A DNA stretch of 55,453 nucleotides from an uncultured Candidatus Saccharibacteria bacterium (lineage in GTDB: Bacteria > Patescibacteriota > Minisyncoccia > UBA6257 > WO2-44-18). Both the position numbers and the translations under genes were made by a program. The notes under the pieces were generated by a model. The model worked only from the letters and a program-made list of their open reading frames with translations. It was not told where the DNA came from and ran no database searches. Where the stretch lies: contig CAZWVU010000005.1 in assembly GCA_964637575.1 (NCBI GenBank), positions 1-55,453 of the forward strand. The letters run 5' to 3'. Below, one piece after another: positions 604 through 1,627 of this stretch (position 1 is its first letter; every line of letters begins with the position of its first letter).

Positions 604-632
604 TTGACAAATCTTTATCGATTGGTTATAGT
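604..632 (+). promoter_or_regulatory. sigma70-type promoter
   Basis: TTGACA (604-609), 17-nt spacer, TATAGT (627-632). Confidence 0.55.
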
Positions 633-676
633 GTTTTTGTGAGTTGGGGCGGATGTGTACTTTTAAGGGGTTGGCA

Positions 677-799
677 ATGGAGGAGCAGGACGTGGCCGAG
701 GCCATGGGTGTCATGGCCGACGAGCTGGAAACGCTCGAAGAGAATCACGAGACCCCGGAACTCCGGGCGATGAGTATCGCCTCGATCTACGAGGTCTAG
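677..799 (+). CDS. micro-ORF, 40-aa strongly acidic peptide (MEEQDVAEAMGVMADELETLEENHETPELRAMSIASIYEV)
   Basis: ATG is 6 nt after AAGGGG. The ORF is below the track cutoff and is followed by an 11-bp hairpin at 817-850. Confidence 0.3.
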   Translation: MEEQDVAEAMGVMADELETLEENHETPELRAMSIASIYEV

Positions 800-1047
800 C
801 AATCTTCTCTACCTTAGGCCTCTCGTAGTTCGAAAGAATTACGGGAGGCCGCCTTACATCAGCTTACAACCAATGCGGTTGCGGGCTGATACGGAGGAAC
901 AGTATTATGCGTTGAGCGCCATTTCCGGATGACCACCAAAACTGAAAAAACAGCGTAGGTGGTCACCTTTTATCGGTCTACGACTCGTGTCGCGGATCGA
1001 TCGCAAGGTAACAGGGCAATTTGAAAATTTTAGGAGGGCTGGGAATT

Positions 1048-1245
1048 ATGCTGAACGACGACCAGGTGGACGCCAACTGCGTGACCGATGCGGATGCCGA
1101 CGAGGCGTTCGTGAAGGATCTGCGGAAGCAGAAGAACGGCCGCGGTTGGCTGCAGAATCTTCCCTTCGGTTCGCGGCGCGTGACCTTCGTTTCCGACATG
1201 TCGGAGCTCGAGGTCGCCAAGCGCGGCATCCGGAGGAAGTTCTAG
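1048..1245 (+). CDS. hypothetical small protein (65 aa)
   Basis: AGGAGG at 1032-1037 upstream of ATG 1048, in frame with track ORF 1021..1245. Confidence 0.4.
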   Translation: MLNDDQVDANCVTDADADEAFVKDLRKQKNGRGWLQNLPFGSRRVTFVSDMSELEVAKRGIRRKF

Positions 1246-1589
1246 CTTCCATTCGGAGGAACGATCGAGATGCATTTCCGTCTGAGGCAGTTTGGCTGAG
1301 CGTAGGTCGGGACGGGTCCCGACCCTAAACACAAACCGTCATGTGCGAACATCGACACGCGACTCCACGGCGGAGCGGCGCTGATGTTCATGCGCCGTTC
1401 CGCCGCAACGCCAACCGACCACAGACGTGGAGGAGGGAAAATTGAAGGCTATGAAGGCCCACTAAGAGGGGCGGCCTTAAGCCTGGTGGGGGAATACGAA
1501 AACGTGATTCCCTCGGGTGGCCAAAGCCGGACAACACACCGGGCAGAGCGCTTCAGTCCGACCCGCTGAAGCCAGTATATTTGAAGTTC

Positions 1590-1627
1590 GCCCCTTACGG
1601 AAAACCGTAAGGGGCTTTTTTATTTTT
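1590..1627 (+). terminator. strong intrinsic terminator
   Basis: 11-bp stem GCCCCTTACGG/CCGTAAGGGGC, AAAA loop, then TTTTTTATTTTT. Confidence 0.8.

Follow-up and report, generated by a model that had tools for sequence, protein, structure and literature searches.

Stem-loops that set the stability or translation of individual mRNA segments are familiar from the ompA-type 5' structure, the 5' stabilisers of Bacillus and the intercistronic hairpins of the puf, pap and mal operons. Dual-function RNAs such as SgrS/SgrT and RNAIII/hld serve as both mRNA and regulator, leader-peptide attenuators include trpL, tnaC and the erm leaders, and in the E. coli macromolecular-synthesis operon rpsU-dnaG-rpoD a terminator lies between rpsU and dnaG. 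Here we describe a unit of about 1 kb at positions 604-1627 of a 55,453-nt stretch of DNA (the window; contig CAZWVU010000005.1 of assembly GCA_964637575.1) from an uncultured Candidatus Saccharibacteria bacterium of the Candidate Phyla Radiation (CPR)/Patescibacteria. The unit carries two small open reading frames (ORF1 and ORF2) and is likely a lineage-specific small-protein operon whose mRNA bears a conserved, novel cis-acting RNA structure. This structure, termed module X, occurs in two tandem copies between the two ORFs.

The unit is not a new kind of system. Its hairpins resemble the ompA, Bacillus and puf/pap/mal stem-loops in being stable, in lying near a ribosome-binding site or between cistrons, in belonging to the sense RNA in cis and in being reused; unlike those stem-loops, module X is a defined motif of three helices, has conserved sequence features and is absent from Rfam 15. 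The rpsU-dnaG-rpoD operon offers a parallel as a small, highly expressed unit with a terminator directly upstream of dnaG-rpoD, but ORF2 is not S21, two lipoprotein genes intervene and dnaG has its own promoter. As in SgrS/SgrT and RNAIII/hld, small ORFs lie inside a long structured RNA with large non-coding parts; the RNA described here differs in being about 1 kb long with two ORFs. Micro-ORFs of 2-9 codons, each led by a Shine-Dalgarno (SD) box, lie near hairpins and a terminator and one of them is conserved in sister clades, which recalls the trpL, tnaC and erm leaders, except that these micro-ORFs follow the protein genes and no terminator/antiterminator alternative pairing was found. Phage morons and integron cassettes are likewise compact modules with ORF content shuffled among relatives and hairpins at their borders, whereas the unit has no integrase or phage context, a strand-specific RNA structure and a stable chromosomal position. 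A literature search found nothing relevant to the unit.

Coding content of the unit

A first-pass annotation of the window had bracketed the unit by a near-consensus promoter and a very strong terminator, and had described small ORFs and stable hairpins between them. The features of the unit, all on the plus strand, are as follows.

604-632, sigma-70-type promoter TTGACA-17-TATAGT, with 11 of 12 consensus matches, aligning with its counterpart in the syntenic unit of relative G003
677-799, ORF1, an SD-led acidic peptide of 40 aa with 12 D/E and 1 K/R; GC content at codon positions 1/2/3 of 0.68/0.29/0.85
817-850, Hp0 of leader copy 1, a GC-rich 15-bp hairpin abutting module X1
850-899, module X1, with P1 (852-855/894-897) enclosing P2 (859-870/878-889), matched by covariance models (CMs)
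907-915, mini-ORF ATG CGT TGA, 9 nt past the GGAGG of X1; the aligned G003 sequence is ATG AAG TGA
930-937/958-965, Hp0 of leader copy 2, an 8-bp GC hairpin with an A-rich loop, from the fold
964-1010, module X2, the leader of ORF2, with P1 (966-969/1005-1008) enclosing P2 (973-984/989-1000); 57 bits with model R1
1017-1047, A/U-rich tract UUUGAAAAUUUU and SD box AGGAGGG (1032-1038), preceding ORF2
1048-1245, ORF2, 65 aa, protein family B; GC content at codon positions 1/2/3 of 0.62/0.36/0.88
1246-1589, structured non-coding trailer
1255-1259, SD box of a 9-codon mini-ORF at 1270-1299, in the trailer
1305-1312/1317-1324, 1369-1381/1392-1404 and 1550-1572, trailer hairpins
1429-1437, SD box of a mini-ORF at 1442-1465, in the trailer
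1590-1627, intrinsic terminator with an 11-bp stem (1590-1615, 8 GC pairs), a tetraloop and a T-run

Both ends of the unit were confirmed, and among the 10 promoter-like sites of a 3.5-kb region (shuffle expectation 2.6) the promoter scored highest. The accompanying statement that no convincing protein-sized gene lies between them was too strong, given the protein family and purifying selection described below for ORF2 and the frame-specific GC content at third codon positions (GC3) of both ORFs. In a sliding analysis, strong codon-phase GC periodicity was confined to 640-775, in the frame of ORF1, and 1045-1269, in that of ORF2; none was seen in 775-1000, in 1270-1627 or in the trailer as a whole. 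Across the source genome (G000) and relatives G002, G003, G005 and G010, the small ORFs of such units have a GC3 of 0.71-0.90 compared with 0.42-0.68 for flanking genes.

By sequence comparison, ORF2 is a member of a narrow, undescribed, lineage-specific protein family. The 65-aa ORF and its SD box had already been recognised in the first pass. We defined family B as proteins of 65-86 aa with an acidic N-terminal D-A-D-x-(D/E)-E, a basic centre and a C-terminus comprising a hydrophobic stretch, a conserved E and an R-rich end, and required a significant profile match. ORF2 itself, laid out as an acidic N-terminus, a basic middle, a predicted beta-meander and a basic C-terminus, aligned with the family profile over its full length (E = 1.6e-11). 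Its homologues share 23-48% identity and conserved motifs, the closest being P0020 at 48%, and the proposed check of nonsynonymous to synonymous substitution rates (dN/dS) gave 0.31-0.34 for the closest pairs of the family, indicating purifying selection. A word-index search with a profile of the syntenic ORFs recovered 12 family B proteins among 5.8 billion clusters, and an exhaustive HMMER search of 1.8 billion cluster representatives recovered 15 at E<=1e-3. Within a sample of 151 genomes of the order, family B was present in only two, both of the Parcubacteria family f1 to which G000 belongs. No relative of family B was found in Pfam or NCBIfam and the ESM Atlas gave no usable match; a PDB profile search with ORF2 returned just a spurious uridine kinase match. 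An AlphaFold2 model of ORF2, a helix followed by a three-stranded meander, was of low confidence (predicted local distance difference test score, pLDDT, of 55). Ribosomal protein S21 was considered as an identity for ORF2 and dropped, as there was no Pfam match (criterion PF01165) and a genuine S21 gene is present on contig C6 of the same genome.

ORF1 is probably translated, to judge from its codon usage and position, and its family assignment is uncertain. The first-pass annotation had the ORF and its SD box right and credited the peptide with 13 acidic residues, which the count of 12 corrects. The start codon and SD of ORF1 align with those of the first small ORF in the G003 unit, and the distance from its stop codon to the conserved hairpin equals that of the family A ORFs in G002, G014 and G018. 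Similarity of ORF1 to families A and C, the two other families of small ORFs in units of relatives, is weak. Further homologues of ORF1 were searched for and none found, and neither ORF gave a Pfam match at E<=1 or an NCBIfam match. The family A members of G002 and G003 bear an R-x-A-R-Q string like that of RNA polymerase omega, which ORF1 does not have. An identity of family A with omega (RpoZ) was dropped, with no PF01192 match at E<=10 and no PDB match. As a separate observation, PF01192 was found neither in G000 nor in 150 further genomes of the same class, save for one sub-threshold match, and all 14 of 14 control genomes were matched; since omega is missing across the class, its absence cannot be peculiar to the unit.

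Module X leaders and the structured trailer

The RNA of the unit is unusually structured. Measured against dinucleotide shuffles, folding z-scores were -6.0 for 1243-1627, -6.5 for 797-1050 and -9.8 for 640-1627, and no shuffle equalled any of these values. The four hairpins named in the first pass all exist where they were placed, although the one given as 11 bp (817-827/840-850) is 15 bp long and spans 817-850. Two further hairpins had escaped it, at 852-897 and 966-1008 (inner stems 859-889 and 973-1000). Because a covariance model found a second copy of the same arrangement, the earlier hairpins at 817-850 and 930-965 are each the GC hairpin of one of two leader modules in tandem. Copy X1 scored 25.4 bits with model R1 and 51.3 bits with model R2, whose seed includes X1. 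The 3' strand of its P1 reads GAGG and is part of an SD-like GGAGG at 893-897, and the two-codon mini-ORF that follows represents a start-stop element or else the remnant of a cassette ORF that has been lost.

Leaders of the genus share a constant order: a GC hairpin, CCUU directly after it, a P2 hairpin of 12-13 bp, AAUC, and AAGG, which pairs with CCUU to form P1. These are followed by a U-rich/GAAAA tract, an SD of the GGGAGG type and the start codon. This design stands upstream of ORF B throughout the genus and in G002 also upstream of ORF C, and the tract and SD trail most copies of module X. Conserved sequence features of the module include a UGU-type loop and, in P2, a recurrent A.C mismatch. 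In an alignment of five sequences 95% of positions assigned to stems were paired, with six doubly changed pairs. With nine sequences the figure was 94.4%, compared with 31-44% when partners were slid, and double changes fell at 9 of 16 pairs; none of 500 shuffles reached the observed values. The GC hairpins behave similarly, Hp0 of copy 1 being kept in G002 through one double and two single compensating changes, and Hp0 of copy 2 showing one double change from A-U to G-C relative to G003. Module X scored 57-68 bits in the sense orientation and 13-19 bits on the reverse strand, and because of this difference we take it to work as RNA on the sense strand.

The reach of module X is narrow: when 151 genomes of the order were searched with a refined model, 5 contained it, with strong matches only inside one bacterial family and weak matches elsewhere. 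Within this range, further copies precede other small ORFs, on contig C4 of G000 and in G002, G005, G006, G039 and G297. The copy on contig C4 lies in a second promoter-to-terminator cassette (approximately C4:72460-73120; L056:1385-2045) that comprises a promoter, two hairpins, module X (C4:72575-72621), a U-rich tract with SD, an ORF whose 127-aa product has a membrane helix at its N-terminus, and a terminator; contig C56 of G002 bears a homologue of this cassette. On contig C1 of G005 (L053), between mreB and a holB-like gene, a small-ORF cassette with module X is flanked on both sides by hairpin-forming repeats of about 100 nt. Autoregulation of module X by the ORF2 product is disfavoured. 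The motif is found ahead of unrelated ORFs, and family B lacks it in clades II and III; for both reasons module X is probably read by a common cellular factor and not by the ORF2 product.

The 3' trailer is conserved to a similar degree. Nucleotide identity between G000 and G003 was 53% in the trailer, 53% in ORF2 and 59% in the intercistronic region, so that between these genomes the non-coding segments 800-1047 and 1246-1589 are conserved on a par with the ORFs. In comparison with G003 and G002, doubly changed pairs were found in the hairpins at 1305-1324 (one), 1369-1404 (two) and 1550-1572 (two). These stems were compared with a hand-anchored script, as MAFFT misaligned the long hairpin in the three-sequence alignment. 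Counts of paired changes, which bear on the covariation raised in the first pass, thus show P1, P2 and the trailer stems maintained by double changes in relatives. The trailer is kept only within the genus and is far shorter or different in other clades. Mini-ORFs had been reported behind GGAGG-type boxes, and all are present: two codons at 907-915, nine at 1270-1299, and seven or four at 1442-1465 or 1451-1465. In every clade the terminator is preceded by a GGAGGAGGG box with a micro-ORF. Its peptide in this genus differs from that of clades II and III, where a conserved peptide ending in GWG is encoded and all differences but one are synonymous. The micro-ORFs of 7-9 codons in relatives encode MPIGGWG, MLQCIGGWG and MMPIEGWG (L039:4305, L044:3305, L040:4364 and L045:599, with G016 judged by eye), at loci of relatives G010 and G005 and of metagenome contigs. 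Because the Ile and Gly codons vary synonymously, this pattern suggests that the GWG-ending micro-peptide is translated.

Known RNA families do not account for the unit. At gathering scores, a tRNA was the sole Rfam 15 match in the whole window; at E<=10, the region 400-1900 gave only weak, terminator-driven matches, the best at 30 bits against gathering scores of 59-65. The 15 syntenic loci contained tRNAs only, and an Rfam family was dropped as an explanation because no near-threshold match lay in the unit or in these loci. The first-pass annotation could not match the unit by eye to RNase P, tmRNA, SRP or 6S RNA, and the covariance-model scan likewise finds none of these, nor any riboswitch, ribozyme or large non-coding RNA family; the Rfam hit that it had named as refuting did not appear. 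The tmRNA and RNase P RNA of G000 lie on other contigs, and 6S RNA was not detected anywhere in the genome.

Variation among relatives and competing explanations

DNA-level similarity searches against 40 relatives matched only two short pieces of G002, and no second DNA-level copy of the unit was found in G000. Units in relatives were therefore located by synteny through the neighbouring 112-aa gene. Nine relatives have a small-ORF unit between this gene and the lipoprotein genes or dnaG, and the position is constant across four genera. These units are 0.5-1.7 kb long and mostly GC-richer than their surroundings, with their own promoter, one to three SD-led small ORFs of families A, B and C, hairpins and a strong terminator. 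Their content varies: A-B'-C in G002; A, a duplicated promoter and C-B in G003; ORF1-B in G000; only B in G001 and G016; B preceded by a weak A-like ORF in G010 and G005; and an A-like ORF alone in G014 and G018. None was found in G007, and a gap in G004 was set aside, as it turned out to be a protein gene.

In G003 a perfect 73-bp direct repeat (L023:1838-1910 and 2315-2387) carries the promoter region of the unit, so each of two small ORFs has a promoter copy. G018 has a perfect 49-bp direct repeat at positions 2-50 and 200-248 of the L024 gap. In G005 (L022:4478-4668, minus strand) a spacer of about 170 nt separating ORF A from the ORF B promoter is approximately 98% identical in contig L045, where ORF B is clearly more diverged. 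With its fold z-score of -4.5, own terminator and high identity, the G005 spacer is a candidate small RNA.

In the likely case that the unit is a small-protein operon, one strongly expressed polycistronic mRNA would encode ORF1 and ORF2 amid conserved cis-acting RNA structure. We infer that module X most likely determines the output of the small ORF downstream by acting on RNA stability, processing or translation. Its role might be that of a structure that stabilises the RNA or guides its processing, or of a domain that controls translation; the A/U-rich tract and strong SD would then promote translation. The 3' trailer with its SD-led micro-ORFs may shield the transcript or hold a second RNA-level function. 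An operon was among the suggestions of the first pass, and the ORF2 family, the purifying selection on it and the GC3 values of 0.85 and 0.88 agree with it. Several observations weigh against this account. ORF1 has no convincing homologue, and the case for its translation consists of codon periodicity and positional conservation. The absence of the unit from G007 and its reduction to one ORF in G014 and G018 indicate variable, dispensable content. The GC hairpins are without proper U-runs and were not called by a terminator scan, so a true terminator role for them is unlikely and a terminator or attenuator role is unsupported. The trailer comparison includes 3-4 genomes and that of module X 9-15 copies, many of them from close kin, and because these sequences are few and largely related, the covariation counts overstate independence. 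An extension of the operon account, which we regard as possible but rather improbable, makes the GC hairpin and module X the operator of a dedicated post-transcriptional regulon, with the SD-rich transcript also titrating ribosomes or a factor. If true, one trans-acting factor (protein or RNA) would co-regulate fast-evolving small charged or membrane-anchored proteins, and the regulon genes would travel as promoter-leader-ORF-terminator cassettes with a GC3 of 0.8-0.9 regardless of host.

The abundance of SD-like boxes invites a different explanation, in which the unit is chiefly a riboregulator and its ORFs are secondary. The SD-rich folded transcript, or a small RNA derived from its 3' part, would act in trans by titrating 30S subunits or an RNA-binding protein, or by base-pairing with targets. 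GGAGG occurs eight times on the plus strand in 988 nt, compared with 2.25 +/- 1.39 in shuffles (0 of 500 reach eight), and CCTCC does not occur at all in the same segment; this is an enrichment of about 7-fold on the sense strand over the genome density of 1.13 per kb per strand. SD-like boxes are thus significantly enriched, and the decoy role proposed for such sites in the first pass may or may not follow. A riboregulator would also fit the strong promoter, the GAGG strand of P1 in X1, and the 340-nt trailer with its fold z-score, lack of codon periodicity and stems kept in sister species. Four of the eight boxes are otherwise explained, however, by lying inside ORF1 (679) and ORF2 (1232), in the ORF2 SD (1033) and within a stem (844); the trailer is conserved only in the genus and ORF2 is clearly a conserved protein, and we therefore think a chiefly regulatory RNA unlikely. 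Similarly unlikely is a unit that moves horizontally as a self-contained cassette for expression and landed beside tRNA-Pro. The differing ORF content and order of congeners, the perfect promoter duplications of G003 and G018, the GC3 of 0.71-0.90 whatever the GC3 of the host, and similar units at other loci, one by a tRNA gene and one between the hairpin repeats of about 100 nt, would all be expected of such a cassette. Its constant position across genera fits vertical descent with local rearrangement, though, and high GC3 could equally arise from codon selection in highly expressed genes or from RNA-structure constraints. No integrase, transposase or phage gene lies nearby, and no recombinase or phage gene was found in the first 7 kb of the window or in the syntenic loci. 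In IMG/VR neither family B nor module X was found, the latter by a pattern plus model search in which 10 pattern matches failed the CM, and a phage origin is unsupported by this search. An integron cassette array or phage moron was dropped for want of a recombinase or phage gene nearby; no attC-type sites were seen, as judged by eye without an attC model.

Two further explanations concern the RNA as a whole or its 3' end. The trailer could be a ribosome-sensing attenuator in which translation of the last micro-ORF governs the terminator at 1590-1615 and read-through to the lipoprotein genes and dnaG-rpoD. The presence of an SD-led micro-ORF upstream of the terminator in all clades, the synonymous changes in the GWG-ending peptide of clades II and III, and a position resembling that of the E. 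coli rpsU-dnaG terminator all speak for such a device. We nevertheless hold it to be very unlikely: the micro-ORF stop codon lies 60-125 nt before the terminator, which is itself very strong, the peptide differs in this genus, the downstream genes have their own promoters with dnaG leaderless in relatives, no conserved alternative pairing was found, and neither minimum free energy nor centroid folds show a competing one. Extremely unlikely in our estimation is one long non-coding RNA spanning all of the 1 kb, with ORFs that are chance frames in GC-rich sequence. Both strands contain several long shadow ORFs, the full length is extremely structured and neither ORF1 nor ORF2 has a Pfam or NCBIfam match, but high GC3 is confined to the two SD-led frames and ORF2 has diverged homologues with a dN/dS of about 0.3. 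With two coding segments, one of them conserved as protein, the first-pass suggestion of a long structured non-coding RNA fails as the sole reading. A type I toxin-antitoxin locus was also rejected, as ORF1 and ORF2 are both hydrophilic and charged and no minus-strand promoter-like site was found within 604-1627. We thus retain the small-protein operon with cis-acting leaders as the preferred explanation.

Genomic setting and significance

The source genome is 781 kb in size, typical for CPR, and 97% complete, and the window is its contig C5. The unit is preceded and followed by these features.

2-73, tRNA-Pro(GGG), 5' of the unit
260-598, 112-aa gene between tRNA-Pro(GGG) and the unit
1673-2341 and 2393-3073, two paralogous HExxH lipoprotein genes 3' of the unit, with weak peptidase matches
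3236-4990, dnaG, after the lipoprotein genes
5036-6250, rpoD-like gene, after dnaG

The 112-aa gene is kept in 17 of 21 genomes of the family and had no match in Pfam or NCBIfam. Its start lies 6-7 nt 3' of a -10-like box and has no SD, so the gene looks leaderless. Elsewhere in the window, the leader of a 65-aa membrane protein (8293-8527) is structured and was not matched by the module X model; it ends with AAUCAAGG, a U-rich tract and an SD, as module X leaders do, and a possible CCUU partner lies about 200 nt further upstream.

Because CPR genomes are tiny, it is unlikely that about 1 kb devoted to two small proteins and some 600 nt of folded RNA is idle. A region that appeared empty thus yields two or three undescribed small-protein families, and module X, recurrent and supported by covariation, could join RNA family collections. 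CPR/Patescibacteria appear to be without several textbook parts, RNA polymerase omega being an example in 151 genomes of the class, and the unit offers elements for probing how small-protein expression is controlled in these uncultivated bacteria.

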